NCBI GenBank assembly: GCA_015680685.1
Contig: MNCI01000593.1
Coordinates: 92,570 to 156,569, forward strand
Source of the DNA: Gnetum montanum
Taxonomy: Eukaryota; Plantae; Gnetophyta
DNA: 64,000 nt
Direction of reading: 5' to 3'
Below, in pieces: positions 1-59,644 of the stretch. The notes under the pieces were generated by a model. The model made no database searches, was not told the DNA's origin, and saw only the letters and a list, made by a program, of their open reading frames with translations. Both the position numbers and the translations under genes were made by a program. Position 1 is the stretch's first letter, and the number at the start of each line of letters is the position of its first letter.

Positions 1-62
1 ACATCAAATGCAACATAAAAGAAAATACAACAATTAATGTATTTGTCTTCATTTTTCCAACA
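1..62 (-). mobile_element. Terminus of an LTR (same family as the solo LTR at 11826-12397) inserted into the RT of the Ty3/gypsy element
   Basis: Reverse complement of 1-62 (TGTTGGAAAAATGAAGAC...) is identical to 11826-11887. Gypsy RT coding sequence (..YRFPIPRMDDIL) stops abruptly at 63. Confidence 0.9.
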
Positions 63-7100: not shown

Positions 7101-10100
7101 TACAACAAACTCCAAAAGCCCCAAAACATCCCAAATACATACTAAACTCCTCAAGATACAAAGGTAACACACACAAGAAGATACACATAGAAGACTATTT
7201 ATTGAGGATTACATGAAGGGTTGGGTGATAACGTCATCATCTCTCACACCCTTAAAAATGTTATGCTTAATGACCTTTCACAAGTTGGAAGGCACCATGC
7301 CCTCTTGACTCAAGGCCATCATACTTGGTGCAACAATCATGACTTAATGCATCAAAGGCACCATGAGAATGAATACCATTTGAGGTTTTGGTTTTGAGCT
7401 TCCCTTGCTCATGGAGGCTTGTCTTCAAGCTCCACCATGCTTCCTTCAATTGAGCATCTTCTTGGAATGTCTCTATTGCATCTCCTCAATGATTCAACCC
7501 TGCACAAAAGTGGCACAATAATCTGGAAAAATAATTGTTAGCATCAACCCATGGAGTAGGCCTCCTTGCCCAATGCCCAAATACAAATGGCATTTCTCCA
7601 CTTGTTGCCAACTGACCTTCCTTGTTCTTCCAGCATCTTCTTGCTAATACAAATATTAGCCTAACACTAACTCAAGTGCTCAAAAGCATCAACCAACATA
7701 CCACTGCCATCAACAACCAAGATTGGACAGTAGGAAAAACAACCTTCATCTCATTCATATGAGACTCCACAGAATCATGCATAGCATCTATCTCAAATGT
7801 ATCTTTAGCATCGATAGTGAATTTTGGGAACAATGGGAGCAGTGGGAATAGCGGGAGTAGCAGGAGCGATGGCAACTGCAAGGGGAGTGTCAGCGGGCGC
7901 TTCGGCAGATCATGTCGTAGGGGTGGAGCGGATGCTCAAAAAAGGGGGAGCCAATGGAAACACTGATGTGACCCCAAGGGGACATGGGGAGGGCGGTGGC
8001 GAGGAACGTCGGGTCAAGGAAAGCGAGGATGTGATGGTACAGGATCCTCGGCTCCAACTGCCTGGGTCGGAAAATGGAAGGCCCGCCTTCGACGCATGTG
8101 ATAGAGAGGGGATTGTGATGAGGATTAGGGTTGGGCAGCTACTTGAGAAGACTATGCAAGAACTCTAGAGCAGTCTACTTGAGAAATTTATTTCTGCAGG
8201 TGTGTAACCGAGGATGGAACTCATTCGCAAGTGGACCAAAATCACCTAGGGGTTGGAGATGGTTAGGGTCCAAAGCTTGGTGGATGATCCTTTGTTGTTT
8301 ATTTTCCCCACTTTGGCCGATCGGGAAAGGGTTTTGCTAGGGGGCCTATGGTTTTATGGTGTTCGTGGCCTGGCCCTGGCACCTTGGCGACCTGGAGTAC
8401 ACCGGGATCGACAGCATGTTGGTTTGGGTCCATTTGTTGGACTTGCCATCTGAATATTGGGAACCCGATTTCCTGAAGTCTTTGGCAGGTCTCTTCGGAG
8501 AGTTTATTTGATTTGCTGCATTTACTGCATCCATGGACTGGATGGGGTACACATAGTTTTGCATGTCGAGGTTGATGCAATTAGCAGAACATGTCGAAGA
8601 GATTATTTTCGATGCTGCAAGAGGGGAAGAACAAATTTGGGTGAAGTTTGAAAATCTGCCCATGGGGAGGTCGGAGGGGAACTGGAAGGATAGTGGGAAG
8701 AGTTGCCTCGTGTTGGACGGTTGTCAAGGGCTGATGGAGTCTGCCCAGGGATGGAATAAAGTTGGGCAGAAGGGTCAGATTTGGAAGCAAGGGGCTTCTG
8801 AGGGCCCTCAACAACTGCCTCACACAATTGTGGGAGGAGGGGATCAGGACTTGAAGCAGAAGAAACGAGACAACATAAGGATGGTGGAAGGCAAGGGATA
8901 GTCTAGTTGGGACATAGGCTACGGGGGTACTGGGGTCCCCTCGTACACCACTGATTCACAAGGCTGTTGAGCCATTGGGGGCTGTGTTGGAGCTACCCTT
9001 GCTAGGGGAATGGATCACTGTGGGAAGGGGCTCTTCTAAACTGAAAATGCAGGACATTAATCTTCGGAGGGTAGGGAGTCCAGTTGGAGAGGTAGTGTAT
9101 TGGCAGGAGAGCAAGCTTGGGTGCCTAGATAAGGCAGAAATGCGCAAGAAATCCACATAGTTGGATCTAGATTTGGGGATACAACACATGTTGCACGAGG
9201 TATACCACTGACGGGTGTGTACCTCGCCATGAAGATTTTATCCTAGAATTGTTGGGGTTAGGGTACCTTGTACAAAAGAAATACCCTACGAAGGATGGTG
9301 AGGGAGGTCAGTTGTGAAGTGGTGTGTTTGCAGGAAACAAAGGTTCAAATGGCTGAACAACAACTGCTGAATTGGGAGGGTGGGACTACCCACATTGTGC
9401 CCAGCAGGGGCTACGCAGGGGGGTTGGCCATCTTAGCTAAAGTTCCAGTTAATCTAGAGCATATGTTGGATTGGAGTTAGATGGTTGATATGTAGCAAAG
9501 GAATATCTAGCTTACAAATTATTATGGGGCACAAAATTGGGAGGCAAGGGTTCAGGAATTCCAACAGGTGGCTAGGCATATCCCCAATACGGCCCACTAG
9601 ATGGTAATGGGGGACTTTAACCAACAACTTTACTGTTGGGAAAAATTTGGTAATGAGTGCACTGATCCTTCGAGGGCTTAGGCATGTATTGAATTTCTGT
9701 AGCAATATGTAATGATCACCTTGGAGATCTTGGGCTGTAATTTTACTTCGAGTAACCGCTGGATGGGTCTAAATCATGTGTAGTCTCGGATTGACCGTAT
9801 TTGGGTTAGTGAGGGCTTAATGTTGGATTCCCAAATCATGGCAGAGGGGTAGGAGCGGTAGGCCTTAGACCACCAATCTATTCTATGTCATATTCAATTG
9901 CAGGGGAGGTGGGGGCCTTGGCCGTTTTGATTCGAGTGGGCTTGGTTGACTAAGGCCTAGCTCAAGCTGATGGTGGCAGATATTTGGCAAGGCTATAATG
10001 GGATGCAGGAGCCTTGACAGTTCCTTAGTGGGGGTTTGAGAGCTTTCAAATGTGCTATTAAGGCCAAAACAACGAAGGATAGATATAGCTTCAGGGGATA

Positions 10101-13100
10101 TTGGCAGCAAGTGTAGGAGGAATTGAGGGCAATCCAATAGTTGCAGGAGATGGGGGAGGCTTGGGATACTGAGGAGTAGGAACTTCTCTAGGAGCTACAA
10201 GACTTGGATAGGGAAGAGGAGGGTTATTGGAGACAGTGCTCAAGGGTGACTTGGATAAGGGAAGGGGACAAGAACACCAAGTTTTTCTTTGCCACGGCAA
10301 GACAGAATCAAGCACAAAAGAACAAGCTCTAGGACATCATTGAGAGCATGGGTGGGGGAGGCCCACACAGTAGCGCGAGCGGGCTGGAAGCCTTGCAAGA
10401 GTTTTGGGGGAATATCTGGCGGTGGTAGGCCACAGATCCCATCTCTCTACACATATCATGCATCCTCACATAGGCAGACAATGCACAGTTGTTATGTCCT
10501 TTCTCGTGGGAGGAATTGCTGCGGGCCTTGAAATCCATGCAAGCCAACAAGGCTCCAAGGATTCTTTAGGGAATATGAGGATCTCATGGAGCCCAATTTG
10601 TTGGATGCGTATAACAGTATGCTCAAATGGCAGCATGTTAGGAGAGAAATAAATTGTTCACGGGTGGTGCTTTTACCCAAAGTCCCTAATCCTTTTGTTT
10701 TGGGACATTTTCTGACTATTGGGGTTTGCAACATGTTAATGCAGGTCTTCTCCAAGATGCTAGTTGGGCGTCTCGCACCACTTATGGGGAAGTTGGTTGG
10801 GGAACATCAGGCTGGGTTTATTAAGGAATGTTTTTTACAGGACCATGTGTTGCTATTACAAGAGATTCTGCATTTGGTCCGGGTGGCTAGATTTCCTGGA
10901 ATGTGTACCAAACTTGACATCACTAAGGCTTATGACATGGTTAGTTGGGCAGTGCTACGAAGAGTGATGGTGGAGAAAGGTTTTGATACCAAGTTTGTCA
11001 ACTTATGTATTTAGATATAGCACAATGGACAATACTATTTGGACATTGATGGCAGGATATGCGGGTTTGCGGGCACAGGGCGTGGCTTAAGGCAAGGGGA
11101 TTTGCTGTCTTCATTCCTTTTCATTATTGTTATGGACCTGTTCCAAAGTTATTGTAGGAAGGAAAGGGTTCAAGGACTTCAGGTTGTTGGGGTGAACAGT
11201 TTAGTGGCACATTATGCAGATGATACTATGGTTTTTTCTCGAACCGTGATGCCATAGGTTGAGGTGCTATTACGAGTGATGACACGAATGCAACACAAAG
11301 TTGGTCTGGAGGTGAACAAGGGCAAATCAGCTGTCTACTGTGTTCACACAGATGGGTGGTGAAGGTCAGGCTCATATAGACACTAGGTATTCTGCCAGGA
11401 AACGCCTACGATACTTACCTTGGTATCCCTATTTTTGATTGGAATAGGTAGCAGGCTTGGAAAGGATTGGTTGAGCATGTAAAAAACAAGACTGCTCTTT
11501 TGATAGGCCGATTCTTATCCCGAAAGGGCAAGATAATACTGTCAATGGTGGTCTTGATGGCCATTGCTTGTTTTGCCACTTCTATGGCTACTCCGCTTGT
11601 CAGTATTATGTAGAAAATAGATAGAATAGTAAGAGCTTTTGTCTGGTCTAGCGGAAAAGGGGGTTGAAAAATGCATTTGGTCTCATGGTTGATAACGGCA
11701 AGACCTAGGCCGGCAGGGGGTATTGGGCTGTTGAGATTTGAGGACGAGGTTGCTTTGGGCCTGAATCGATTGTTGAATAGGTTCATGGGAATTGCGGCTA
11801 GAGGGGCACCATGGGTGCAGATTTTTGTTGGAAAAATGAAGACAAATACATTAATTGTTGTATTTTCTTTTATGTTGCATTTGATGTGAGGATGTGTTTT
11901 ATCCCACATGTATTAGGATTGGGGTTTGGTCCTCATGTTTCTTCATAAATAGAAGGCTTGGGGTAGCCTTTAGTGTGTGCTTCAAAGTGAAAGCATTGTA
12001 TCAAGGTTTTACCTTGGAGACGTGAGTCTTGTTGGTGTTGATTTGAGATCTGTTGGAATAACAGATTGTGTGTTTGAAAAGTTGCAAGGACGGCTTGTGT
12101 CCTTAAGATTTGAGAAGAATAGAAGTCAGATCAGCATTGTTGTGGAAGTAGGGTAAAAGGGGCCCGAACCACGTAACTCTCTGTGTTCTTGTGCTATTTC
12201 CTTTTTACTGTTTTTATTCTGTTATCACAGCAAATGTTTGCTAGAGTTTGGAATGTTTTGAGAGTGGTTTATAGTGTTTCTTACAGTGCAATATTTTGCC
12301 TCTAATGATTTATTCAGATCTGTAGGGTTTTTAATAATTTCTCTAGAGCATTTGTAGTGTGTTTTCAGATCTGTGTTTTTCAGATCTGATTATAACAATT
12401 TTAACACAAAAAATACTGTAGATGGGAGTCCTCATCAGCCAGCTCTCATCTCTAGAAAAATTTATGCTAGTTTGTGGCCAAAATCGAACCAATGGGCTTG
12501 CTAGGACAATAACTAAAGGAAATGATAAAATCCTTCTATCCATTGGTGGAGGGTTGGGCGGCGGTATGGAAAGGTTGTCTCCCAGAGAAAAGTAAGGCAT
12601 TTGGGTGGCTTATCATGCACCGGGTGTTGCCTGTGAAGGCCATGTTATGGGAGTGGGGGTTACAAATTGAGGATAGCTATCCATGTTGCCATGCGGCTCT
12701 AGAAACGCTTAATCATTTTATGGACAAGTGCTAGTTTTCACAAGCTGTGTGGCAGATAGATCAGTTTGCACAAGTTACAGGGATCCACGGGGACTCGGCA
12801 AGACTTGCCATGCTATGGATCATTTGGAAGAAGCGGAACTTGCTGGTTTTTGGAGGGTAGCAGCTCCCTATGATGCCCACGATGGTCAAGGAGGTGTGCC
12901 TACTGTGGTAGGAGGCAATGGCAGCCATGGAGCAAGGGTTGCTCTTTGAACCATCATGGATGGATTTCGCCAACATGCCCGAATTATGGGTGTTGGTGGA
13001 ATGCATGGGATGGGTAGAAATGTTCAAACGGTTAGAGGGAGAACCCAATTTGGCCACACAATAGTTTCACGATAATTGGGAGGGAGAGACTATGCAGTTC

Positions 13101-16100
13101 TGGGGCAGAAGGATTGAAGTCTTTGTGTAGGTGCTCGTGGAGGCATTGGGGGTGGAGGCGGCAGTGGAAATTGTGGCCCCTGTGGCAATGGCATAGACGA
13201 ACGCCATGGAGTTCTTTCGTGGGTTGGTTCCCAGGATGGCTAGTAGGCACATTCGGCATTTCGGGTTACAGGACATCTAGAAAGATGCGGCGTTGATGGT
13301 TGAAAGGTACTTTGTTTAGTTTGGGTACCCCCACAAACTGGTGGGGGTGCATTCCACTTCCTTGGAAGTACCTTAAACAGGGCTCCCATGTGAACTTGCC
13401 CCAGTTCTTTTGGGAATTGTTGAATAGGTGGCGGTCAGGGCGACACCCTGGGGTTATTCTTGCGTTATTGTGCAGGGGTATCCCCATTGCCTGCTCGGCA
13501 ACAACTATTGTTTATTAGAGGTGTAGGGGTTTTGGGTAGGCGGCTTGGGAAGTGCAATCGGATCAGCGGAAGTCACTATTTGATGACGTTGCTGCCTTTG
13601 GTTTGTCTTCCACTGTGCTGTCAGTACAGCTTGCTTGTGGGTGTTCTCGTGGTAGAACACTAATGGAGGGCTTCTCACACTACGGCTAAGCAGGTGAGGT
13701 TGGAGGAGGGCGTGAGATGGCAACATAGGTGGGAGGAGATGTGACAACAGGCTAGGCAGGAGGCAAATGAGGCATAGTTGTGGGACATCCAATGGATGGA
13801 GGATGTTCTCACAGAACACTGAGGGCTTGACCCAGCTTCTCGTGATTGGGTACGGGGTTGTGGTGCAATAGTTGATGATGACTACGATTGCATTGGGGAC
13901 GTTGGCGGGGGTTGAGGTCGGGGATTGCATCGGCCAACCAATTGGGCCTCGAATCTGGGAGAGTGGTGTATGACCTTTCGGGGCACCATGGGGAGGGGGT
14001 GAAAGTATGGCAAATTAATGGAGGGAAAATGTGGTTGTTTGGGGCACTTGTTGNCCGAGGTCATATTGTCTTTGGCTGTCAAACTTGTTTGAACTCCTGG
14101 TCTTCCAAGATCTAGGGATTGGTGGCATTGCTACTGTGATGGCACGTGCGCATGCACGACACGGGCATGTGGCTATGGCCCTCAGGTGATGGTGGGCATT
14201 GGCCTGTGATGTACAATTGTTCACACATATTTTGGATTAATATAAGCTTGAACATTACTCCAAAAAAATGTATCCTCTTTAGCATCAAAGAAAATTTCAT
14301 CATAACAGATAGCATCCACACTTAAAATTTCCTTACAACTAGGAAGCATCAATGAAAATTTCATATTACCAACATTACTCTCAACAATAGTGGACATCAA
14401 CCTAAACTTATGATTGCCTTGCTTCATATAGTCCAACTATTATTTTCTTGATAAAAAATAGCCTTATTATCATAATTCCATGGCCTACTAAATATGAGAT
14501 TTGAACAATCAATGGGCAACACATCACAATAAATCTGGTCATGAAAATCTCCAATGGAATAATCAATAAGGCACTGTTTCTTAACTTGCTTATAATGATT
14601 CTTCATTAACCAATGCACTTTGTATGGATTAGGGTGAGGAAGTGTAGCTAAATGTAATGACTTCACAGCTTTGGTAGAATTCACATTTTCTTGTGCACCA
14701 CCATCAATGAACATACTCAATAAATGACCTTGAACATCACAATGAGTCTTAAACAAACTCTTCCTCATAACATCCTCATTGGCACTAACATGCCCAACAA
14801 AAGTGCAACTATTCAACTCACTTTGATCAGCAATGTACAAAGGATCATATTCACATATCTTCTTTAAAGATTTAGGCTCATCCTCTTGCATAGTTTGAAC
14901 TTCCCTACCCTTATAGACATTCTTCTTTGGCTTAGTACACTCCCATTGTCTATGACTTGATTTACCACAATTATAACATATATCTTTACATTGATTTTAT
15001 ATTTTGGAGATCTTTCCCTTCTTCTTTCCCTCCTTGGAGAATTTGACTCCTTTTCTCTCTTCTTTTGCTCATATTGACCATCCTCCTTGGATGATTTCCA
15101 TGACTTTTGAATTATCTCTTCCTCATGCCTTTTCTTGTGATTTTTGTCCTTCTTTAAGCCAAATTTTGGAATTTTCATTTCAGCCTTGAGAGCAAGATCA
15201 TCGACTTCATCAAGAGTCTCAGGCTCACAGAATGCTAACTTTGGTTGATATTGCATCCTTAATCCACTAATGAAGTTAGAAGCTTGCTCATACTCAATCC
15301 AATGAACATTAGCCTTTTGTAACGCTTTACAAATTCAACATAATAATTTTTTAGCTCTTGATCTTCTTGCTTGAGAAATTTCAACTTTATGATGGCTTCA
15401 TGATGGAAGGATGTCTTCTCACATTTTTGCTTTAGCATGAATTTCATGAGTTGCCAACTCTCAATAGGCCCTCCATGTTCTTCAAAGTACTTGAGACATT
15501 TTTAGTCGCACCATTTGGCTGCCAATCCTTCAAGTTTTCTCTCAATAACATGAATCATTGACTCACTAAAGAGTGGCTCAACAATAAAATACTTATTTAC
15601 AACTGTAAGCTCAGAAGGAAAGAAATCTGTATCCTCAACACCCTTGAAGATGGGAATATCTACATGAGAAACTCTTAAAGCACTTCTTAAAATCTTTACA
15701 AACCTTTCATCATCATTTTCTTCATTATTATGAAGAAAATGAAACTTTTGCTCATACCTCTGAGTTCTAGTCTCTTCTTTCCTTGGAGTCCTTTGATCAT
15801 TTCTTCCTTTTGATCTTTGCATAGATGCAAAACAATTCTCTTCTTTAATCTCCTTTTCACTTCTTCTTGAAGTTTCTTCAAAATTTGGTGTTTGCTGGCC
15901 ATTACTTTGGGAAGGACTTCTTGCATTTCAGCAACAAAAGCCTTAAATGAGTCTTTAAGCTCTTGAAGCTCTTGATGTGTCTTCTTCTTAGGAGCCATAC
16001 CTTTCATAAAGCTAATGGTAAAATCTTAAACCAACAAGATGAGATCTTTAGGGCATACCTTTTAATTCAAGGCAACAAGGTACTAAACCCTAACACAAAG

Positions 16101-19100
16101 TGTAATGAAGATATAATTCACTTAAAACCCTAACATTTCAATCAAATGGGTGCTCAATTATCTAAAAGAAACTTGACCTTATGAGATTTCAGCAATCTTT
16201 ACCAAGCTTAGGTTCTCCAAACCCTAAGTGGCTATAAAGCTTCAAAATTTCATCAAAACTTATGTGTGGATTCCTCCAAACCAAGCACTCCGATACCAAT
16301 CTGTTGCAGAGCCTACCTCAATAGACCCCAAAAGGACCCATTCCACAAACTTTCCAAGCAAATTAAGCTTAGAAAACAAGAACAACCCAAAGAATTGGAG
16401 AAAATTCTCTCTTTTGTTAAATAACTCTCAAAATATAGACAAATGCATCAAAGATGAGGAGGCAAGCTCAACTCACATATCTCCCAAGGATCTTAGAGGC
16501 CACACATGTCCCCTCTCAATCCTCAATTGTTCATAATGGAACCAAAGCTCAAGACAAGACATGTATAAGAGATTCTTCTAATCTCTTTCAAGTGCGCTTC
16601 CTTGCCTCTCACTCAAATTCCTTGCATAAGCTCTCTTCTTGCACAAGCTCTTATGAGACCCCTGAAACCTCTCTCTCAACTCTTGCCCAAACTCAAGCCT
16701 TGGACACTTATTTATAGCTTCTTGGTGTGGCCTTTTATCTTTTTAGTATTCAAAATACAAATTAATATTTGTTGGAGTTTGCCAAAGAAGATGTCTTTGG
16801 AGAGGAGAAGACGTCTTTTCTGAGCCGAAACTCTTGTAGAGAAGACATCTTTGGACTGTGGAAGACATCTTGGCATGGCTGAGAGCCTGTGATATGCAAA
16901 GACATCTTTCAATCTGGGAAGACATCTTTCATCTAGAAAAGACATCTTTCAAGCCTGGAAGATGTCTTTCCAGGTCTGTCCATCAGTCATCTACAATCCA
17001 AGTTGAAGTTCCAAATACCTTCAACAAGCTCCTAAAAGCCCTGAAACATCCCTGAAAACATCATGAACTCCTCAAGACAGAAAGGTAACACACACAGAAA
17101 ACAATACATTGAAGATTACATAAAGGGCTGGGTGATGTCCTTATTGCTAACACCTTAGGGTTCGGTTGACTGTTACAATGTTCATCACTACCAAGCATTT
17201 CCTAGTATGAAGATTAGATGGTTCACTAAAAATTAGCTGTGATTTTGGGTTCATGAAAATAGTATTGCTAGTCATGTTTTCTAAAGATATGAAACTACAT
17301 ATGGACAGATAAGTGCTTCAATATTTCACTAGTAAATATCCGTTTAGCCAATTCAACATTTATTTGAATACCATCCTTCTTGTCTTTCTCTTTTGGTAAT
17401 AAATTGGTGCACCATGCCAACAATTACCCAGTTGGTAACTTAGCTAGAATTTAAATTCTGTATTAGCTATAAAAAAATATTATCTACAACAGCAATATCA
17501 AAGATTACCTTTCAAAATTAGTACATTACAGGATTCTTCAAATAGATATCTCTAAGATAAAACATATATATACATTTTGGTACATGCATGTTGCTAGGAA
17601 CTGTGTTTTTGGATTTTCTTATTTAGAGTATAAAATATTTATCAATTCTATGTATCACCAAGATGACATGCTATCTACAGAAAACATTGCATAAAAATGA
17701 TAATGTGGTAAACCTGGTTAACATTGTTATTGGGTGACTTTGAAGTATTTTATTTGCATTGAAAATCATCATTATCCTAGCCTTGTCCCAACTTGGCTAC
17801 ATGAGTTCTTTTTCATCATTTGCCTCTATGAAAAGCTAGATTTTTGTTTATTTGCAGTTTCTTCAAACCATCTTCAATTTTTTCCCATCTCTTTTTTGGT
17901 CTTCCTTTCGGTGGTTTTGTTGAAATAGTGATGGAGCAACTTTTTTTATAAGTTCATTGTCTAACCTTCTTTGCACATGTCCAAACCATCAAAGCCATCA
18001 TTGTTGTAGTTTATCTGAAATAGAAGGCACTCCAAGTCTTCCTCTACTGTCTATATTATGCACTTTATCTCTTTTGGTAACATTCAACATCCATCTAAAC
18101 ATTTGCATTTCTGCCACACTGATTTGTTGCTCATGCCCTTTTTGTACTGCCCATCATTTAGCATCATATAAGATAGCAAGCCTAATTGCTGTCCTATAAA
18201 ATTTTCTCTTCAATTTTATGGATATTCTTTTATCATATAGAATACCACTAGCCTATTTCCATTTTGACTATCCTACCTCAATTCTATTTTTTTACATCTT
18301 TATCAATTTCACCATTTGATTGGAGGATTGATCCTAGGGAGCAAAACTATTTATGGTGAGGGACTTCTTGGTCTTTATATTTTACCACTGTTTATGCTGT
18401 TATTAAAATTGCATTCAATATATTTTGTCTTAATTCTACTAATTTTTAAGCCTTTTGATTTTAGAACATGTCTTCACTTCTCTATTTTAGGAGCAATATT
18501 TTCTCGAGTTGTATCCATTAACACAATATCATTTGCAAATAGCTTACACCAAGAGATTCCATCTTGTATTTTCTTTGTTAATTCATCTATAATAATGACA
18601 AATAAGTATCGGCTAAGCACACACCCTTGATGTAAACCTACTATGACTGGAAAATCAAATGTTGTTCCACAAGCTGTTCTAATTTTAGTGGTAGCTCCTT
18701 GATACATATATTGTATCACTTTAATATATTTTCAGGGATGTATTTCCTCTACAAAGCCCACCAAATAATATCACTAGGCACAATGTCATATGCTTTTTCC
18801 AAGTTAATGAAGATCGTATGTATATTTTTTTCTATGTTTTCTGAATTTTGCCATCAATTGTCATATCAAGAAAATTGCCTCTATAGTGGATTCCCATGGC
18901 ATAAATCCAAATTGATTTTCTGATACTATTGATTCAAGACTCTCCCAAAGCTTCATAGTATATCTCATTAGCTTGATCCCTCTATAGTTTGTCCAATTTT
19001 GTACATCTATTTTATTTTTATAGATAAGAATAACAATGCTTTTTCTCCAATTGTTGGGCATTTCTTCATTTTTCAAAATTTTGTTAAATAAGTGTGTTAG

Positions 19101-22100
19101 CCAAGAAACTCTTGTATCTCTTGGTGCTTTCCAAGCTTCTATAGGAATATATTTCTTGTTTTTGATTTTTGCTAATTTATAAATAGGTTTTTCTCTTTTC
19201 TTTGTTCCTAATTTTTCATAAGAGTTGTCCAAGGCCTTATTGTTGGCATTGGCTACTCCTACTATTGTCTCCTTTTTTGCGATTTTGTATATCAGCCTAT
19301 TTTCTTGGCTATTGCTTCAGTATCATTTCTTAAAGTAGTTTTTCTTATTTTGGATAGCATGTTGTGCTTCATTAGTCCACCACCATGTCTCGTTTGGGAT
19401 GTATTTTTTGCATTTTGTTTTACCTAAAATACTCTTTCCAATTTTCTAAATGTAACTTTCCATTTGGCCCCAAATTAAATTTGCAGAGAAATCCCAATTT
19501 CAGGTGCCTTCGTGAAACAGTTATTCTCTAAATAAGGTGATGTTATCTTCCTTCAAATTTCACCACTTTATGCATTTAGTCTCTTTTCTCGTGCTACCTT
19601 TGAAGCTCTATATAGCTAAGTCCATGACCATTAGTCAATGTTGAGTTGTAAGGCACTCTCCAAGTATGACCTTGCAGTCTTTGCACATGGCCCAATCATT
19701 TTTGTGTAGCAAGAAATAATCAATTTGTGTTTTATTTTTTTTTCTTTGAGAAAGAGGTCGGGATTATATTAAAAAGACTCAAAGTATGTTACAAAAGATT
19801 ACAAGCGATTACAAGCGGTGGGCCATAAGGAATGTTCCCACCGAGAGGGGATGGCCCCCAAATCACAAAAATTGCGATCAAGACGGTCAAAATAGAAAAC
19901 GGCAGATACAGCAGGGGGGGCGCCCCCTCGGAAAGTGGGGGGGCACCCCCACATGAAGCCACCCAGCGAACTGGGGGGNNNNNNNNNNNNNNNNNNNNNN
20001 NNNNNNNNNNNNNNNNNNNNNNNNNNNNNNNNNNNNNNNNNNNNNNNNNNNNNNNNNNNNNNNNNNNNNNNNNNNNNNNNNNNNNNNNNNNNNNNNNNNN
20101 NNNNNNNNNNNNNNNNNNNGGGGGGCAACCACCCATTACGGGTTCGTTAGCAGCCGTCGGCAGGCGCAGTTGGGGTGCTCCAACTCATGGAGGATATCGA
20201 GAGTGTTCCGATGATCTTCAGTGTCCACGAAGCTGGCTGCCTGCTGGAGGCCCTGCATGAGCGACTCCCGTCTACCCCTGTCCTCCTGCGAAGCTCCCGC
20301 ATCTGGGTGGTACCGCGCCGAGGTTCGGCGGATGTGTCGTCTAAGTTCCATCCAGGAGCTCTCACAGTTGATGCCAAGAATAAGGTATGGGCATCGCCCC
20401 TCCCGCAGCCATTGTTGGGCATTATGCCCTGGTGGGCGTGGTCAAGTTGTCTCTGCCGCTGGTCTTCCTCCTCCTGGAGCCGCTCCTGCTCCGCCCGCTC
20501 TGCCTGCTCATGTCGTCTCTGGGCCTCCTCTTCCTGAGTTAGCTCTTCCCGAACCTGGGCCCTGATTTCATCAATGAGGCGGGCCCTGGCAGCCTTAGCC
20601 ATGAGCTCCTGCTGTTTGACCCGTTCCTGCTCGCGCTCAGTGACCTGGGCTTTAATGTCGGCCCGGGCCTGCGCGAGGGCTTCGTTCCATTTGGCCTCCC
20701 ACTCTTCCTGTACTTCGTCTGCTGCCCTTTGTGTGGCTTGTTGAAGCTTCTCATTCCAGTTCCTCCGGCCAGACGTCTTCGGCNNNNNNNNNNNNNNNNN
20801 NNNNNNNNNNTCGGACTATCAGAGCGTTCGGGGGAATGCCTCTCCGTTCACCCCTGTGGAACGGAGGAACCCCAACAGGGCCAATCGCCCCCCCGCCCAG
20901 GCACTGCCTCAGCCTGCGGCCTAGCCGAGGGGGAGCACTCCGGGGAAACCCCCCGCGGGGGGGGGGGGGGGGGGGGAGGAGGAGGAGGGGGGCTGCCCCC
21001 CCTCCGCCCCCTGCCAGAGCGCTAGAATTAGACCAGAGTGGCGGCTGCGGCGCTTGAGCCTAAGGGTCTCCTTAAAGAAGCGGGGGAGGTTGACCTGGCT
21101 ACCCAATCTGAGACAGCGCAGGAAGGCAAAGTGTAGGCCCTGCAACTTGGAGGCGTTGCTAGATTGGACGAAGAAACGGTCAACCAAATCTGCTCCCTGG
21201 GCCCATAGGCACAGCAAGGAAGATTTGGGCACTTGTTGGCTCCTAGTTCGGGGGACGGGCCCATCAAAGAACATTTCCGCATCCTGGAGGCCACGGGTGG
21301 ATGGCAAAATGATTTCTCCAGCGATCGGGGCCCCTAGACAGCTAGCAATCGAAGATTCTGTAATCCAGATTTCGCGCCCGCAGAAGAAGGTACGGTCGTT
21401 GACCCAGTTGGAGAAAAACGCGTCATCTGCCAGATCTGGATCCTCGACCAGCCGCTACAGAGGGTCTGACCAGTTGCACTGGGCCACCATCTGCCAAAGC
21501 ACCTCGTCCTCCTGGAACGCGGCGCAGTTCGGTTCGAAAGTGGGCGTGACTCCCATCGTCGCCTCGAGTTCCTTCCATGCGGCGAGAGCTTGGGAGACCA
21601 GCCGCTGCGGAGGGGGGTGCTGCTGCTATTGGAAGATTGCGTTATTCCGTGCCTTCCACGCTACCCATAAAAGGAGCGTGGCTTGGGAGTCACCCATGAG
21701 GCGCCTTAGGGGGGGCATAGCCGCCGCGTGCCACATGGTGCGCATGCAAGGGCACTCAGCCGCGAAGTGTTGTGCCGTTTCAGCAGCAGCGTCGCATGTA
21801 GGACACGTATCACTGCTTAGAATCCTGCACCGTCATAGCAGGGCCCATATTGGCAACGTATCAATTTGTGTTTTATTGATACCACTCTTATATGTAATTA
21901 AATGTTCAATCTTCTTCTTGAAATAAGTATTTGCATTTACAAGGTCATTGGAACTTGCACATTGCAGTAGTGAATCTTCCATATCATTATGCTCTCCAAA
22001 TTCATGTCATCCATGAATCTTGTCATACCTCATTTTCATAAATAAAACATGACCTTTAAAATCCCCTCCAATGAATATGCTTTCTTCTTGTGGAATTTCT

Positions 22101-25100
22101 TGAAGCACAATATCCCTAGAATCTCAAAAATCTTGGTTGATGAAATTTTCTAGGCTAATTTGAAAATACTTAATGATCTTAAACTGAAATTTTATTACAT
22201 CTGTAGACCCTATGGATTTATTGGATAGGAGAAATATACATGCTTTGAGTTTTGAAACCATCATTAATAAAATTGCCAATTGCCAAGGGTTCTTGGTAAC
22301 ATTTAGAGCAAATAAACCAAATTTGCAACTATAATATCCCATTTATGTCTAATGTGCTCAAATGTAGGATATTGCAAGAAAATGTGGTATTATCTTCAAT
22401 CTATTTGTATTGCAGAGTTAGCATATTCATTCTTCACAAGGAAATTTGAGCCATCTACATATTTCTACTCTCAGATGTTGAGATCCGAGTTGTGCTCTGG
22501 TAATTGTGCATTGCAAATAATGAGGAATAATGGCAGATAAATAGTTTGCTTAATATAAGTAAAGACATTGTGCTTTCCTCATTGTAAGCATAAGTGCTTT
22601 GGCAGCTTGCACATGAAAACGTACACTTAATGCTATGCTATTTGCTAAAAATTTAGATAAAGCATGTTTTGTTACTATATATTCCATATACTTGTGAACC
22701 CATTAATGTTTTTGGAGTTTCAGGAATTTATGCATGTGCTTTGAATGATAGCCGATATAGAGTTTAACTGAATATGTTTTAATAATCACACCATCTTGTG
22801 ACTTTCAGGTTGGAATCATGACCTTTTTCTTAAGTTCAATCCTGGATAACTTGACCACTACAATCGTCATGGTTTCACTCCTAAGAAAATTGATCCCTGA
22901 TCCTGAGTATCGAAGGTATAGCTTATCTCACTATCTTATTTTCAGGAATATCTAAATCAATGTCTCATTGTGCAAAGAGCTGCTGGCTATCAAATGATGT
23001 TGTTGCATTAAAAGAGTATTTGTAACGAACCACTTCTCCTTGAGTTTTAGTGTTAACAATTATAATAGTCTTTCTGTGTGTTTGTGTGCATGTTTTGTTG
23101 ACAAGTTGTGTGTGTGCTTAAATGTTTAAATACTTTATGCATAAGAAATATGATTTAAAATACATATTGGGAATGTTTTAAAATAATAATAATAAATAAT
23201 ATATGGAAAAACAAAATATTTTTTGTTCTACTTCAACAAAGATGTTGAGAAACAAAAGAAAAATAGAGAACAATGCTCTAAGGTGTGCCTCAAGAGCTAA
23301 AGCAGGTATGTTGAGATGCAAAAGAATGCTCATATTGAGGAACTTGACCTATGAATCAAGTTGGAGGAACTTGACCCATGAATTAGGGATATTGTGAGAA
23401 AATACTGTAGCTTTATATTTTATTTTATCTAAATGTGATGCATTGCTCTTTTTAGTTTAAAATAGTAGAGTATAAGTACCCTCTCCATGGCTGTAGAAAG
23501 GTCACGTGATGACTTTTCAAGGCTCATAAGATGATGAGAAAATTCACATTGCTGATGACCTAAAACAGAAGGTGCCTTATTTGATTATATATCCTAAAGT
23601 ACCCTAATCATGAATCTATTTTGAAAACTTTTTCCTTGCACCTTATGACAATTTTGAATGATAAAGAGATAGATATTATGCTGGAACGTTTTGTAATTAT
23701 CAAGAGGAATTGAACCTAAGATCTAGCAAAATCTAAATTCTAAAATATCAAAAATTGTTGATTTAGGAATTGAACCTGCAACTTGTGAATGTACATATTT
23801 TATTGATTTTTTTTATAGTGATCATGAAGAGAATTGAACTTATGACTCATTGCTGAAAAAAAAAGAGAGAACTTTAAAAGGAAAGAAAAGAATACAAACA
23901 GTTCCCAAGATGTTAGTTACAAAAAACCATCCATTATCCCTTATTCCACCTACAAATAGGGAGAGGAGGAGAGAAAAAAAAAAACACAAAGGCAAAAGTA
24001 GCTGATTTAGACAAAAACAAAAAACAAAAAAAAGAAAGAGATACAACAAGGAGTGTGGCTAAGAAGGGAGAGAAGATTGTGGCTGCTATAAGAGATAGCA
24101 AGGAGAAAGAAAACAAGTGTGGCATAGCAATCCAATATTTTGATAATTCCTCCTAGTAAGAAAGATATCTAAGCAAGGAGATAAAATGATCCATCTCTGT
24201 TATGTTTGATAATGCTCAGCAAGGGCTGATTTTCTCAAACTTCTCTCTTCTTGCTTGCCTAGCCACCTTCACAATGCTTGTATGAAATTATCAAGATTGT
24301 TGTTGTAAGCTTAGATTGTTGAAACCTTTATTACTTTTTTTGGATCTCTCCACCTGTCCTCTACACTCTCACACCTAAATAACTTGGATGAAAGTTGTTT
24401 CTGTAATGATTTAGAAACACTCATAACGATTTGGGGCATTTTTGGCAAAAGATTGCCAACAGGGGCCAAGGATCCCTGATATGAACATTGGTACCACCAA
24501 CAGAAAGTGAGAGTATCCTTGGGCCCATGGATAATTGTGAATGTTTTAAAATTGTTGAATTCTTGGGTGTTGGTTAGAATTTGGTTGATGAACCCTCCCT
24601 CTTTGAATGCATAAATTTTGGATCTGAATTTTGAATTATACTTTTTTTTCCTATACCTTCTCAAGTCTGATTTTGATATCTTTTTATAAGTTGATGGAGT
24701 GGGGGAAAACTTAGGATGTTAATTTATGGTTGTGATTTATCTATTCTCTGTTGTTGAACATATGAATCTCTTGATTAAATGATTAATGATAAAAAGGTTA
24801 CAAGAGTTAAATTAAGATGATCTTGTTTTGTGTGTTGCTGGAAATTATAAAATATTATTATGTGATTGAACAAATCTGAGATTATTAATTTATCCGCTTC
24901 TGTGGTCATTTCTTTGGTTTACAAATGTGTAAATGATCTTAATTAGATATTTCTTTTTTGGGCGAATAAAAAAAAAGCTTGATTTTTTTTAATTTGATGA
25001 ATCTTGCATAGATATTTTACTATGGCTATTTCTTTTTAAAATTATCTTTTAATTCTTAAAATTAATATTGATTGACCTGATTCAGAGCTAGATCTAGGTG

Positions 25101-28827: not shown

Positions 28828-30049
28828 TAATTTTATTTCAAAAATTTAAGAATTGAAGGAGGGTTAATTAAAGAGGGCAGAAGAGGGGTACCTCATCAAA
28901 ATAAGGGCAGTCATATTAACTTGATAGTTCACTGTTTGAAGCTTATGAAGAAGTTAAATAGTATGAAAATGGGGGTATTAGAGATGGAATCCCTCTTTAA
29001 AAATTCAGAATGCTATCATGGATCATTTGTCCAGAGTTCATTTTCAGCAAGATTGTCCCTTGTAATGAAGGTGTGGTATTCTTTCATTTGTCCAGAGTTC
29101 ATTTTCAGCAACATTGTCCCCTTTTCAGCAACACTGTCCCCTGCAATGAAGAAGTTGCTAGTTGCTGTAATGTTGTTTACAGCTTTGAAACTATGGGACT
29201 TGGCATAATTTTATTAAAACAAATGTTTCACTGTGCTTGAAAGTCGGTCTTATTGCGATGAGGACTCACCGTTGCGTGAACAAGCTGCAAAGACAAAATT
29301 ACTTAATTTCATTGTGAGTTGGGACATTTTGGTGTATTATGTTTAATATGGCAGCAAAAGGAGATTAATTTAACATTGGAGCAATACTTTTAAAATGATA
29401 TCTATATTGTGATTTAGGAAAAAGGAGGATTTGGAAAAAAGACATTTGAAGAATTCTTGTAAGGTGGCTTGCTAAAGACATCAATTTAGCTGCTTTGTTT
29501 AAATCATGTGAGTTCAATTATTTCCATTTTGTTTTACTTTCTTAGCTAATGGTTTAGATAGTATCATGATTGACATTTAATTTTGAGATTTGTCTTAGGT
29601 TGCTTTTATAACTCTATTTTTAGGTAGTATTAGATTTGCTATAGAAGAGCTCACGTTGTTGAAAGCCTCAAGAGCAATTTAATAGTAATGTCTTAATGAA
29701 ATTACCTGTTTTAAGCATAAAGGATCTAGGAAAATCTTCTACCACTTTGTATCAAAAGATGAGCTATCTAGCGTTCATTATGCAAGCAAATCTTTTAACA
29801 ATGGATCTAGTGATACTTATTCCCTATCAAGTTTTGAAGAAGATATATCATCAAATAAGGAGTGTAATAATAATGAGGAAAATGAATATAATCTTTGATC
29901 AATAGAAAGATTAATTATTTCTAGGCCTCCAAACGTCATTTCTAATCCATTTACTAAGAGAAAGGTTTTTAAACCAAGTAGAAAAGAGAAAAATAAAAGT
30001 AAAGAAGATCAAGTAGAGCAAAGTACTCAAAATCAACCTCTTAATAAAT

Positions 30050-31330: not shown

Positions 31331-33889
31331 TGTTGACACATTTATGCCATTTCATGGAACAGTGATAGGCATTACCCAGAACATTTGGTTCATAATTTTA
31401 TTTCAAAAATTTAAGAATTGAATGAGGGTTAATTAAAGAGGGCAGAAGAGGGGTACCTCATCAAAATAAGGGCAGTCATATTAACCTGATAGTTCACTGT
31501 TTGAAGCTTATGAAGAAGTTAAATAGTATGAAAATGGGGGTATTAGAGATGGAATCCCTCTTTAAAAATTCAGAATGCTATCACGGATCATTTGTCCAGA
31601 GTTCATTTTCATTTTCAGCAACATCGTCCACTGCAATGAAGGTGTGGTATTCTTTCCAAGCACTTGACAACCTTGCATTGTCCTGCTCTTTCTGCAACGT
31701 GCTCATTGAAATTCAGGATACACTGAAATCACCCCTAGCCAAAGAGGGCTCATCCTGAGAAGGGCAGACAAGATAAGAATGAGTTTTATGATTTTTTTTT
31801 ATATGTCTATGGGCTGGGTTGGATATCCAGCATTTTGAAATGATGCTTCAGGAAACATGTTAACAGGGTTTGGCAGATATCGGCACTGTATGCATTGTAA
31901 TCCACATCGTGGGTGCAGATCAGGTTTTTATACAGCTCATTTTTAAGGTTGATGAAAGTACCATCTCCAATAGATGGCAAATAGCCGAGTTTCAAAACAA
32001 ATCAAAGTCAATCCTAACACCATTTGGACCAACTGAAACTGTCCGCATTTAGATAGTGCCGTCGGTGCAACAATGGTGGCAGATATTGCCCAGAATAGGG
32101 TAGGTAAAGGTGACGGAGGAGAAACAATAATGCCCAAGTGCCCAGCAGCAGAGCCACAAGTAACCGAGGGACGCCAGCAAGCACATGCCGGCCATGATGC
32201 TGAACGTGATCGGGAACAAGCCATCATCACCGATGGACGATGAATCCACCAACTACCCACTACATACGATCGTAACATATCTATGTGCGGCCATTATTCA
32301 ACCGAATTCCCTCTTGAATTTGAAGTAACAGTCATTTAAACTTAAAAAGGCAATGAAAACACTTGAGGTTGCAGTCCCAGAATTAGTTTTATTCCATATT
32401 GAAGATCCACAATTGCAAATGAATTGCAATGAGTTGCAGATACTCTGAGAAGCATCAGCGATGGGTAATGCAGCAGAAAGTGCAACAGAGGATGAAGATG
32501 CAGCGATCTACGCAACAGAGTTGTCAGACGCCAATCTCCTGAGTGATTTTGACTTGAATTTTGATGACGATGATTCCTTCTCAGACTTTCCAGAGTTCGA
32601 GAATAAACCATCTGTTCTGTATGTTCTACCCATCCAAGCAATTCTTCCTCCCATTTCTGGTCCTAATGATCCCATCTACAACCAATAGAAATTGAGAATC
32701 TGCAGGCTGCGGCAGGACCCCAATCCGGCAGGAATTGTTCCAAACGAGGAATTGTTGAATAGCTGAAGCACCTCCAGCTGCTGTAATTGGCCGATACGAG
32801 CATGAATAGGACCATCCAGAAAATTATCGGACAAATTCGGGGACCCCAGAAGGCTGCACTTCAAAATGGACTCCCGAATGGCTCCTGACAGTCCGTTATC
32901 GAATGTTACAAAAACGGCAAATAAAACAGGTTGTCGATATTTCGCAGCAGAGTACCAGAAGGTTGATTAGATTCGAGCATCAGGTACTGCAGAGACGTCC
33001 GTCCGTTTGCAGTGGCAAGGGTTAGGGTTAGGTTGCAGAATGCTTCTATAGCCTGCACTTTTCTTTGCCACATCCTCCTCGCCTGTCGTTTTTTCAGATA
33101 TTTCTCGTGTTGTTTCTTTGCCGCTTCCGCCTGGTCCTGCCGTTGCAGGCGTGCTGTTTGGGATCTTCTTGAACTTCTGCAGAAAACGCGAGCCTGAGCA
33201 CGTTGCTGTAAATTGGGGAAAACTGAGCGCGTAAGAAGCTGTACACCTCAAATCCGCGTAAATGCTGCCTCCATCGTTCCTCCATTGTTTGCCAGAAGCA
33301 GCTGCAGCTGCCGTAATGTTGTTTACAGCTTTGAAACTATGGCACCGGCCATAATTTTATTAAAACATATGTTTCACTGGGCTTGAAAGTCGGCGAGGAC
33401 TGGCCGTTGGGTGAACAAGCTAAAAAGACAAAACTGCTTAATTTCATCATCAGATGGGACGTTTTGCTGTATTATGTTTAATATGGCGGCAAAAGGAGAT
33501 TAATTTAACATTGAAACGATACTTTTAAAAAGATATCTATACTGTGATTTAGGAAAAAGGAGGCTTTGGGAAAAGACATTTGAAAAATTCTTAGAAGATG
33601 GTTTGCTAAAGACATTAATTCAGCGGCTTTGTTTTAATTCTATGAGTTCAATTTTTCCCATTTTGTTCTAGATTTTTAGCTAATGGTTTAGATAGTATCA
33701 TGTTTGGTATATAATTTTGGAATTTGTCCTAGGTTGCTTTTATAGCTATGTTTTTGTGCAATATTAGACTTCTATTAAGATTTACCATAGAAGAGCTCAT
33801 GTTGTTGAAAGCCTCAAGAGCGATTTAATAGTAATGTTTTAACGAAATTGCTTGTTTTAAGCATAAAGGATCTAGGAAAATCTTTGATA
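31331..33889 (+). repeat. 3' LTR (~2.56 kb) containing ~1.65 kb absent from the 5' LTR
   Basis: 31393-31656 matches 28828-29085, and 33295-33889 matches 29150-29744. Confidence 0.82.
32650..32845 (-). pseudogene. Captured plant LRR (LRR-RLK/RLP-type) gene fragment
   Basis: NLSDNFLDGPIHARIGQLQQLEVLQLFNNSSFGTIPAGLGSCRSLQILN gives two plant-specific LxxLxLxxNxxxGxIP repeats. Confidence 0.8.
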
Positions 33890-34575: not shown

Positions 34576-35185
34576 CTTGTACTTGGGCACAAGTATGACC
34601 TACAATAAAGATCGAGCTATTTCATACTATTGTAGCATTCTCCTAGTTTCCTATTTTATTTAGAATAATATTTCCTATTTTCTAGCTTAATGATTTACTT
34701 TTCCAAAGTACACTTTACACTTGCTATTGTTAGTATGTGGAATGGATACAACTAATTTTGAGCATAAAGTGTGATCATTTGGTAACTCAGTAGTATTAAA
34801 GCTTGGTTTGCCCAGTAGTGAGGTACTTAGTAATCCCAATAATGATTACATAAGTCTAAGATGTGTATAGAAAATTAGGAACAGATATCCATAGCCTTAG
34901 GCTAGCATAGATTGGTTTACTTGTTTCATCTAGACTTAGGGACCATTTCCATTCTCATCATGTTCACTAAGAGTACTAATGGCCGAACAACATTAGATAT
35001 CATATACTTCACGGTGAGCTAAACCATACACATAGACTTCACTAGCATCACGTGGGAAGACAACGGTCATGAACTTAAACAATTACTAGCATATTCACAT
35101 TGCCTCATCCACGAATTACGATCAAGTCACGTGTGGATACTCATGACTTGTATGGTTGGGTGTTGGATTACTCCATTACTCATCA
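34576..35185 (+). repeat. 5' LTR (visible part) of the Athila-like element
   Basis: Collinear with 61688-62298; ends CATCA. Confidence 0.9.
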
Positions 35186-59470: not shown

Positions 59471-59644
59471 GAAAATAAGGGGGAGACTCATTTGAAATTC
59501 CTAAACACCTTAGAATGATGTCAAATGATCTTGCATGCATTCTAGAACCCTGTATCCAACTAATTGATAGTCACTTAGATGAGGGTTCAAGGTTCATTGA
59601 AGTCGATGCAGTTAACTCCATGATCCAGATGTTGCAACAAGTTA

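Follow-up and report, generated by a model that had tools for sequence, protein, structure and literature searches.

The window analyzed here is a stretch of 64,000 nucleotides. It contains a truncated L1 element (L1-b) with additional coding sequence behind its ORF2 core. We give an even chance to the following reading. L1-b belongs to an old plant L1 lineage in which ORF2 runs in frame into a captured domain that is related to Transposase_32/ATHILA and predicted to be VANC21-like. Behind that domain lies a predicted coiled coil, to which two of three elements add a J-domain, and this tail is likely the element's own anti-silencing module. The features are listed in Table 1.

Table 1. Positions of the L1 elements, their domains, and the insertion site in the window
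Feature	Position	Strand	Basis
L1-b, 5'-truncated L1 starting within zf-RVT	19737..21859	-	Boundaries and empty-site joints
Left target-site duplication of L1-b, 18 bp, exact	19719..19736	.	Sequence
Right target-site duplication of L1-b	21860..21877	.	Sequence
L1-b 3' UTR and A-tail, broken by N gap 19979-20119	19737..20135	-	Sequence
Decayed AT-rich LINE, host of the L1-b insertion	17800..22460	-	RVT_1, E 4.7e-12
C-terminal part of zf-RVT (PF13966)	21731..21826	-	Pfam, E 5e-4 to 5.5e-3
WxxWxxRN motif, WVAWKARNNAIF	21632..21667	-	Sequence; present in L1-a and L001 too
Extra domain, ~183 aa, in frame with ORF2, starting at Met	21008..21556	-	Sequence, profile, predicted structure
Pro/Gly-rich linker with G homopolymer (within 20957-20992); reading frame breaks here	20811..21007	-	Sequence
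Predicted coiled coil, open reading frame (E 20%, Q 15%, R 14%, A 15%)	20432..20783	-	Composition
DnaJ (J) domain, HPD intact at 20301-20309	20196..20390	-	Pfam PF00226
L1-a, older near-full-length L1: DUF4283 ORF1, APE, RT, zf-RVT	7815..14265	+	Pfam
Extra domain of L1-a, in frame with zf-RVT, one frameshift near 13360	12927..13479	+	Alignment; coiled-coil remnant after

Boundaries and insertion of L1-b

L1-b is a member of a high-copy family. Its GC content was 60%, compared with 30 to 32% in the flanks, and it contains two N gaps. A 7-base A-tail (19737-19743) adjoins the left target-site duplication. Empty-site joints (19718 to 21860, 2141 nt skipped) were retrieved from four of four runs. 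The element sits in a decayed LINE, presumably RTE-like, whose reading frame resumes across the insertion. An assembly chimera was ruled out, as raw reads and contigs span the element except for the N gap. The extra domain as a nested unrelated insertion was also ruled out; a single target-site duplication surrounds the whole, and three families keep the same junction.

Position and reading frame of the extra domain

One minus-strand frame of L1-b contains, in order, the end of zf-RVT, the motif WVAWKARNNAIF, a stop codon (21626-21628), about 25 residues, and the extra domain, whose first Met lies at 21554-21556. The zf-RVT score is under the curated Pfam cut-off because the copy is truncated. 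We take the WxxWxxRN motif to be the usual end of the L1 ORF2 core. A second stop (21455-21457) lies inside the domain. The domain frame contained 2 stops in 275 codons versus 8.7 in shuffles (P 0.008). This count and the L1-a alignment rule out a chance ORF as the origin of the domain.

Other copies of the family have sense codons at both stops. At 21457 the sense codon accounted for 406.6/418.9, 1529/1751, and 408/422.8 of contig depth and for 143/155 RNA reads. The corresponding values at 21628 were 245.3/269.9, 543.9/635.8, and 79.3/84.1, with 29/31 reads. Both L1-b stops are private to a single copy. No family-wide stop between zf-RVT and the domain was found among the contigs and reads of other copies. 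The matches listed included no RNA record of the exact L1-b stretch.

A sequence-only reading of this DNA had placed the domain in frame behind zf-RVT, and the peptides that it quoted do all lie in one minus-strand frame. TFEP does not directly follow the motif; about 30 codons lie between the two. The extent assigned to the domain needed revision. The domain is real and runs from the Met over the interval in Table 1, and the element goes on past it. The same reading overlooked the downstream coiled coil and J-domain and left the second copy in the window unused.

The same domain in other L1 elements

The domain was in frame with ORF2 in three of three L1s examined. These were L1-b, L1-a, which has a degenerate target-site duplication near 7795 and 14266, and L001, a full-length L1 on a metagenome contig with the domain at the same place. 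ORF2 of both L1-a and L001 encodes APE, RT, and zf-RVT, of which L1-b retains only the zf-RVT end. A DUF4283 ORF1 is encoded by L1-a (E 1e-7) and L001 (E 4.5e-21) and is absent from L1-b, which is 5' truncated. No target-site duplication of L001 was found when it was looked for, and its RT had no relatives in the viral contigs scanned.

L1-a and L1-b aligned over 228 residues without gaps through zf-RVT, the motif, and the domain (32% identity, E 1e-37). L001 and L1-b shared 28.5% identity over 284 aa of zf-RVT plus domain, and the EN/RT regions of L001 and L1-a shared 29 to 35%. The domain has thus diverged as much as EN/RT, which fits inheritance with the lineage. Judged by these alignments, the extra domain is an old trait of a plant L1 lineage. 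The acquisition of an accessory domain by a LINE lineage, in frame with ORF2, had been proposed from L1-b alone. It is borne out by the same position in three L1s about 30% identical, two of them with DUF4283, APE, and RT upstream. In all three, the start Met of standalone homologs has an aligned counterpart. The copies show heavy C-to-T decay in the form of TAG stops, which means that they were methylated and incompletely protected.

Sequence relatives of the domain

The L1-borne copies had no match to PF20167 or PF10536 at E<=10. A match of the domain to any Pfam family was obtained for 0 of 4 rows in the L1-borne set and 1 of 9 in the wider set, a standalone protein at E 0.018. PF10536 matched none of the 9 rows at E<=10, and RVT_3 (PF13456) had no match after zf-RVT at the same threshold.

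With hhalign, the L1-borne profile matched six standalone Ginkgo/Taxus-type proteins with probability 99.0 and E 3e-18 over 167 columns from the start Met; the link is partly circular, as these homologs were found via the L1 profile. When the six standalone proteins were made into a profile, it matched the domain in L1-b (1.2e-17), L001 (3.9e-10), and L1-a (1e-3), with no further match in the window. P0005, which ranked first in the profile search (E 6e-13), was dropped. It is an ankyrin-repeat protein that matched in six short stretches, and 6 of 7 matches were left. Standalone protein P0011 has a weak match to PF20167 (E 0.018 to 0.037, 14.3 bits against a 45-bit cut-off, profile positions 3-167 of 177), and 26 of its 30 Atlas neighbors belong to a PF20167 set. 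For the L001 piece, 25 of 30 Atlas neighbors were unnamed clusters and Transposase_32 appeared only at 0.88, which is a lead.

By profile comparison, the domain is homologous end to end to standalone gymnosperm-type proteins, one of which is Transposase_32-like. A relation to Transposase_32/ATHILA is supported at the superfamily level. The earlier label of PMD/Transposase_32 therefore stands at that level, via the standalone homologs and a moderate fold match to VANC21, and not as a direct match to PF20167 or PF10536.

Word-based searches retrieved no intact fused ORF2 protein on record, which is weak evidence. There were 0 of 342 candidates among longer proteins with the single-domain query, 0 of 566 at near lengths, and 0 of 6358 at 1039 to 2965 aa with a 10-row alignment. 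Used as a query in DNA scans, the domain had no relative in the metagenome, viral, and genome contigs scanned; the standalone homologs had none in the viral contigs scanned. PDB sequence searches gave nothing below E 0.06.

Predicted fold

The AlphaFold model of the domain (pLDDT 86.3, pTM 0.85) is mostly helical with one beta hairpin. An earlier model from a 3-row alignment was unusable (pLDDT 38). In a search of 48,161 PDB chains, VANC21 was the only chain with Z of at least 2 (Z 5.6, rmsd 4.0, 166 aligned of 183, identity 10%); this Z is under the caution level of 8, and the match is moderate. Foldseek also retrieved VANC21 (TM 0.45, E 2.2), with the other matches listed at TM <=0.21. The viral fold library contained no match to the model, and no RNase H chain was among the fold-search matches listed.

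Two outcomes had been named beforehand as counting against the label, and neither arose. VANC21, not ordinary L1 RNase H, was the best structural match, and similarity to PMD/Transposase_32 appeared through the standalone homologs and the VANC21 fold match. The domain is predicted to have a VANC21-like fold. A fold shared with VANC21 shows no function. VANC is described in the available text of two papers as structurally homologous to the PMD proteins MAIN and MAIL1 (PMC13547354; bioRxiv 2024.09.27.615353). The structural link between the domain and PMD is indirect, through VANC21 and these papers.

Linker, coiled coil, and J-domain

The reading frame breaks between the domain and the tail in three of three copies. 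The open frame downstream of the break is the -1 frame in L1-b and L001. The single relative contig that spans the linker is shorter by 22 nt, a difference not divisible by three. By eye, the linker contains what may be a -1 slippery site; this depends on homopolymer length and is not claimed. A sequence homologous to the start of the coiled coil is present in L1-a (score 47, against at most 32 in shuffles).

The PF00226 match was 26.6 bits (E 6.3e-6) in L1-b, just under the 27.8 cut-off, and 35.4 bits in L001, above it. Both cover profile positions 2-63 of 63. HPD reads YLD in the decayed J-domain of L001. No J-domain was found in L1-a by profile, tblastn, or frameshift-aware alignment (scores 28 and 25, within shuffles). 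In L1-b, the J-domain and the coiled coil are offset by 2 nt. They share a frame in most other copies covered, and other family copies show a 2-nt gap at 20430/20431. Up to the J-domain, the L001 tail reads in one frame, interrupted by 9 stops (each TAG) in 658 codons; shuffles had 45.6. Differences among family copies fell on third codon positions at 11 of 15 listed J-region sites (P 0.002) and at 24 of 39 overall. The J-domain lies inside the L1-b boundaries. It is likely, not certainly, part of the same polypeptide as ORF2.

Possible function and alternatives

The accessory ORF may have been captured whole, from its start codon on, probably out of an LTR-element extra ORF. In an anti-silencing module, the VANC-like domain would attach to the element's own copies, through DNA or chromatin, by analogy with VANC21 at VANDAL21 motifs. 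The coiled coil may oligomerize it. The HPD J-domain would recruit host Hsp70, which would loosen or remodel silencing complexes there, in the manner of host SDJ1-3 with SUVH1/3. ORF2p accompanies the RNA to the site of insertion, so the module would be delivered to every new copy. Tentatively, and with more doubt than belief, we extend this to a gymnosperm-type L1 ORF2 of ~1,900 residues. It would combine EN, RT, sequence-specific VANC-like DNA binding, and an Hsp70-recruiting J-domain, and each insertion would bring a self-targeted counter-defense with Hsp70 as host cofactor.

Several points count against the main reading. They are the lack of a direct Pfam match, the moderate VANC21 match, the partly circular link to the standalone homologs, the frame breaks, L1-a without a J-domain, YLD in L001, the methylation-type decay, and the lack of clear arrays. 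The non-coding DNA of the elements showed no clear tandem target arrays of the VANC kind. Tandem repeats there were only short (9 to 10 bp, at 7825-7866 and 19789-19817), and the 5' UTR of L1-b is absent. PMD-fold proteins can also promote silencing, as described for MAIN/MAIL1 in the available part of PMC5418596.

The same anatomy could do another job, which we consider unlikely. The J-domain would recruit Hsp70 to fold ORF2p or to assemble or open the RNP, the VANC-like domain would tether the RNP to chromatin for target choice, and silencing would be unaffected. Fusion to ORF2 would give a low-level product acting at insertion, unlike the free-standing VANC, and the copies did decay in the manner of methylated DNA. 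J-domains classically stimulate Hsp70 in folding and assembly, yet the same source, as far as its available text goes, documents plant J proteins at methylated chromatin (bioRxiv 2026.09.14.751395). The sole structural match is an anti-silencing DNA-binding protein. Ordinary plant L1s are mobile without such a tail, and RVT_3/RNase H are the sole plant ORF2p additions named in the available text of PMC5203782.

It is less probable still that all or some of the accessory part is made as a product of its own, either ORF3-like from the conserved Met or a coiled-coil/J protein made by frameshift or from its own ORF. Such a product could act in trans like VANC. The Met conserved in all three L1s and aligned with the standalone start Met fits this, as do the break just past the domain in 3/3, the open -1 frame in L1-b and L001, and the single relative contig, which loses the frame over the linker. 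The lack of a family-wide stop between zf-RVT and the domain argues against it. The L1-b break also lies at a long G homopolymer beside an N gap, and L1-a and L001 have several other decay frameshifts. We consider it very improbable that the resemblances arose by chance, with the domain being either a fold of L1s alone, without relation to Transposase_32/PMD/VANC, or a passenger without function. The lack of a direct Pfam match, the Z of only 5.6, and the Atlas result for L001 (mostly unnamed clusters, with Transposase_32 only at 0.88) would suit it. It is opposed by the full-length profile match to standalone proteins, by retention of the domain at ~30% identity in three families, and by VANC21, a plant transposon accessory protein, as the single match in the chains searched.

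Novelty and significance

The literature searched contained no LINE with these domains and no PMD/VANC/Transposase_32-type domain joined to a J-domain. Domains of this type have been described in Gypsy elements, MULEs, and host genes. With LINEs as carriers, the fold would reach a third major transposon group, which suggests its repeated recruitment for conflict with host silencing. The route by which VANC removes silencing, and its host factor, were left open in PMC5735166. A natural pairing of a VANC-like domain with a J-domain points at Hsp70 as that factor and makes the idea testable. An anti-silencing tail would offer a reason for the high copy number of this L1 family in a heavily methylated genome, and it may be a new sequence-specific epigenome tool. 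Should VANC-like domains occur in old gymnosperm-type elements, the dicot origin of VANC from MAIN proposed in the available text of PMC13547354 needs a wider tree.

Comparison with known systems

The elements share with plant L1-clade LINEs a DUF4283 ORF1, an APE-RT-zf-RVT ORF2 core, an A-tail, a target-site duplication, and 5' truncation. They differ behind zf-RVT. Plant L1-clade LINEs have RNase H or nothing there, whereas these elements have a Transposase_32/VANC-like domain, a predicted coiled coil, and a J-domain. The plant ORF2 addition named in the available main text of PMC5203782 is RVT_3/RNH, and DnaJ is not mentioned in it.

The extra ORFs of plant LTR retrotransposons, Transposase_32 (PF20167) and ATHILA ORF1 (PF03078), appear to encode a homologous domain, linked through the standalone gymnosperm-type proteins. 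A long helical region follows the Athila domain, as it does here (PMC13547354, available text). Unlike those ORFs, the L1 domain has a non-LTR carrier, is fused behind RT, scores under the Pfam cut-off, and is joined to a J-domain. In the available text of PMC5418596, descriptions of PMD are confined to Gypsy elements, MULEs, and host genes.

VANC21 (DUF1985), the anti-silencing protein of VANDAL21 Mutator-like transposons, is a predicted fold match to the L1 domain. It too has a coiled coil, for oligomerization, according to the parts of PMC13547354 available. VANC belongs to a DNA transposon, as a gene of its own, and is described as dicot-specific in the same text; VANC21 has 10% identity to the L1 domain. 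Host SDJ1-3/DNAJ1-3 (with SUVH1/3, anti-silencing) and SILENZIO (with MBD5/6, silencing) have a J-domain joined or bound to a DNA- or chromatin-reading module (bioRxiv 2026.09.14.751395, available text). These are host genes, likened here by their description in that source, whereas the J-domain of these L1s is encoded by the transposon.

Reading frame of L1-b

L1-b is a 5'-truncated L1 insertion. It is bounded by an 18-bp exact target-site duplication, its A-tail has 7 bases, and its surroundings are a decayed AT-rich LINE. The GC content is 60%, against 30 to 32% in the flanks, and the empty-site joint was seen in 4 of 4 runs. The whole stretch between the duplications was therefore copied as a single RNA.

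The peptides quoted in the sequence-only reading were all found in one minus-strand frame of L1-b. This frame leads from the end of zf-RVT (Pfam E 5e-4) through WVAWKARNNAIF, a stop, and about 25 residues into the extra domain, which contains a second stop. Over its 275 codons it holds 2 stops, where shuffled sequence has 8.7. Contigs matching the region amounted to 4684 and 6598 records over 19600-22000 in two DNA runs, some flanking LINE included. Other copies have a sense codon at 21457 (contig depths 406.6/418.9, 1529/1751, and 408/422.8; 143/155 RNA reads) and at 21628 (245.3/269.9, 543.9/635.8, and 79.3/84.1; 29/31 reads). Both stops are private to the L1-b copy, so zf-RVT and the extra domain form a single open frame across the family.

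Features of the window and of metagenome contig L001
Feature	Coordinates	Strand	Remarks
L1-b	19737-21859	minus	target-site duplication, A-tail, empty-site joint
WVAWKARNNAIF after zf-RVT end, L1-b	21632-21667	minus	
Extra domain, L1-b	first Met 21554-21556, end near 21008	minus	
Predicted coiled coil, L1-b	20432-20783	minus	open E/Q/R/A-rich frame after Pro/Gly linker
J-domain, L1-b	20196-20390	minus	intact HPD; Pfam DnaJ E 6.3e-6
J-domain, L001 3' end	about 7550-7750 (contig)	plus	Pfam DnaJ E 1.2e-8
L1-a	about 7815-14265	plus	DUF4283, APE, RT, zf-RVT
Probable LTR pair	6410-7122 and 16302-17041		about 85% identical, about 20-bp repeats; gag-like ORF on minus strand beside each
Tandem array	5530-6462		period of 211 bp; no differences among the first three copies
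Array of about 181-bp units	57800-59480		palindromic motifs
Dispersed repeat pairs	28828-29738, 31393-31656, 33306-33884; 34576-35185 and 61688-62298		81-99% identity

The array at 5530-6462 either arose by recent duplication or reflects an artefact of assembly. L1-a is split between RT and zf-RVT by an insertion of about 0.7 kb (11821 to about 12540), probably a young LTR family. The first 67 nt of this insertion match window positions 1-67 in reverse at 99%.

Extra domain in other L1s

L1-a, the older L1 of the window, aligns with L1-b without gaps over 228 residues spanning the WxxWxxRN motif and the extra domain (32% identity, E 1e-37). Its extra domain ends in the next reading frame. The L1 domain profile gave 7 matches at E<=0.001 among 1.84 billion proteins. 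One was dropped as an ankyrin-repeat artefact. Another, P0007, sits on L001, a 13.9-kb metagenome contig with a third, full-length, AT-rich L1. It encodes DUF4283, APE, RT, and zf-RVT, followed in frame by the extra domain. Identity to L1-a is 29-35% in EN/RT, and identity to L1-b is 28.5% over zf-RVT and the extra domain. Divergence in the extra domain is therefore similar to that in the core enzyme, consistent with one old capture by the L1 lineage. The proposal of a LINE lineage with an accessory domain fused to ORF2 is borne out by the in-frame domain in all three L1s, and we hold this anatomy with high confidence to be a lineage trait.

Identity of the extra domain

The remaining five profile matches are standalone proteins; Ginkgo biloba supplies two, Taxus chinensis one, and two are unnamed. 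Their domain typically begins MGG...EP. The Ginkgo protein Gb_10421 (P0008) has two copies of it, as two matched stretches. Going by the named relatives, the host is probably a gymnosperm. A profile of the five proteins and one cluster mate matched the L1 profile with probability 99.0 (E 3e-18; 167 columns starting at the first Met), a link that is partly circular because the proteins were retrieved with the L1 profile. The standalone profile detects the extra domain in L1-b, L1-a, and L001 and matches nothing else in the window.

No L1-borne copy of the extra domain matched Pfam at E<=10. The standalone P0011 matches Transposase_32 weakly (E 0.037; positions 3-167 of 177), and of its 30 Atlas neighbours a PF20167 set includes 26 and an ATHILA set 3. 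For the L001 piece, 25 of 30 are unnamed clusters, and Transposase_32 at 0.88 is a lead only. An AlphaFold model from 9 alignment rows had pLDDT 86.3 and pTM 0.85. The sole chain at Z>=2 among 48,161 PDB chains was DNA-bound VANC21 (Z 5.6, rmsd 4.0, 166 aligned, 10% identity); a sister VANC21 entry had Z 5.3. In Foldseek VANC21 again stood out (TM 0.45, E 2.2), with the other rows listed at 0.21 or below. This match of the predicted model is moderate and below the tool's caution level, yet it is alone, spans the domain, and points to a plant transposon accessory protein. We infer that the matched stretch of VANC21 (300-525) is DUF1985. VANC (DUF1985) is described as structurally homologous to the PMD proteins MAIN and MAIL1 (PMC13547354; bioRxiv 2024.09.27.615353). 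From the profile, Atlas, and fold matches, the extra domain is most likely part of the Transposase_32/ATHILA/PMD/VANC superfamily, below the cut-off for every single Pfam family. The suggested likeness to PMD or Transposase_32 thus holds at superfamily level, through the standalone homologs and the moderate fold match to VANC21, and not as a Pfam match of the L1-borne copies.

Predicted coiled coil and J-domain

The sequence-only reading did not include what follows the extra domain, a predicted coiled coil and a J-domain. The J-domains of L1-b and L001 stand at the 3' ends of these elements, outside the interval first described (21010-21541). Thus 2 of 3 L1s have a J-domain. L1-a contains the start of the coiled coil, and a J-domain sought there was not detected. 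The L001 J-domain has YLD at the HPD position, and in the 658-codon frame leading to it every one of the 9 stops is TAG, where shuffles have 45.6 stops.

In L1-b the coiled coil and J-domain are 2 nt out of frame. These 2 nt, at 20430/20431, are absent from most covered copies in three sequencing data sets (X5, 52.4/52.4 depth; X16, 15/22 reads; X11, 68.6/88.7), which places both parts in frame there. X9 had 0/2.1, and X1 was without depth at this position. Codon positions were counted for the best-supported 40 of 216 differences among family copies; one linker difference was left out. Third positions account for 24/39 overall and 11/15 in the J region (P 0.002), an excess that is a sign of selection acting on the protein. 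In two seemingly stranded RNA runs, relatives at no more than 95% identity contributed 33 and 54 reads. These reads lie mostly on the J region and nearly all in the same orientation, the sense strand by the usual convention. The reads of a third run had both orientations. The reads suggest transcription of some family copies and carry no inference for L1-b itself.

The frame is broken between the extra domain and the rest of the tail in all three L1s. The L1-b frame is lost at a long G homopolymer, next to a gap of 27 Ns. The sole relative contig spanning the linker is shorter by 22 nt, a length that three does not divide. Just past the homopolymer, a heptamer with the form of a -1 slippery site (20940-20960, minus strand) was read by eye in phase, opening into the open linker frame; this hinges on homopolymer length. 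A single ORF2 of about 1,900 residues is likely, as L001 suggests, and a separate or frameshifted tail product is possible. The Met at the standalone start is kept in all three L1s, which fits whole-ORF capture and would also permit internal initiation.

Proposed function

VANC21 binds short motifs in the transposon that encodes it and causes loss of methylation there (PMC5735166). For VANC, as for the Athila domain, oligomerisation through a coiled coil is predicted (PMC13547354). At methylated chromatin, host J proteins work both ways: SDJ1-3 counter silencing together with SUVH1/3, and SILENZIO promotes it together with MBD5/6 (bioRxiv 2026.09.14.751395). The favoured reading, at about even odds, is that the tail is an anti-silencing module of the L1 lineage. 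The extra domain would bind DNA or chromatin, the predicted coiled coil would be a helix for oligomerising the tail, and the J-domain would recruit Hsp70. The tail would be delivered together with ORF2p.

Against this stand the strong C-to-T decay of the copies, the lack of evident target arrays, and the fact that a shared fold does not equal function. A tail for RNP chaperoning or targeting, which could also employ a J-domain, is rather unlikely. A separate trans-acting product, for which the broken frames and kept Met would leave room and a single ORF2 would not, is distinctly unlikely. It is very improbable that the domain resemblances arose by chance.

Comparison with known elements

Known carriers of PMD are Gypsy elements together with MULEs and host genes (PMC5418596); among the atypical domains that Gypsy elements contain, PMD ranks first in frequency (PMC9289625). 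Transposase_32 is known from Athila extra ORFs (PMC11728184). No LINE with the extra domain or J-domain was found in the searched literature, whose coverage stopped short of subscription journals and Repbase. The main text of an L1 survey is without DnaJ, and its supplement, covered in part, may bear on it (PMC5203782). The addition to plant ORF2 named in that survey is RVT_3/RNase H, whereas in the lineage described here the extra domain follows zf-RVT. The present analysis ties the accessory/J tail to a LINE, as a variant of L1.
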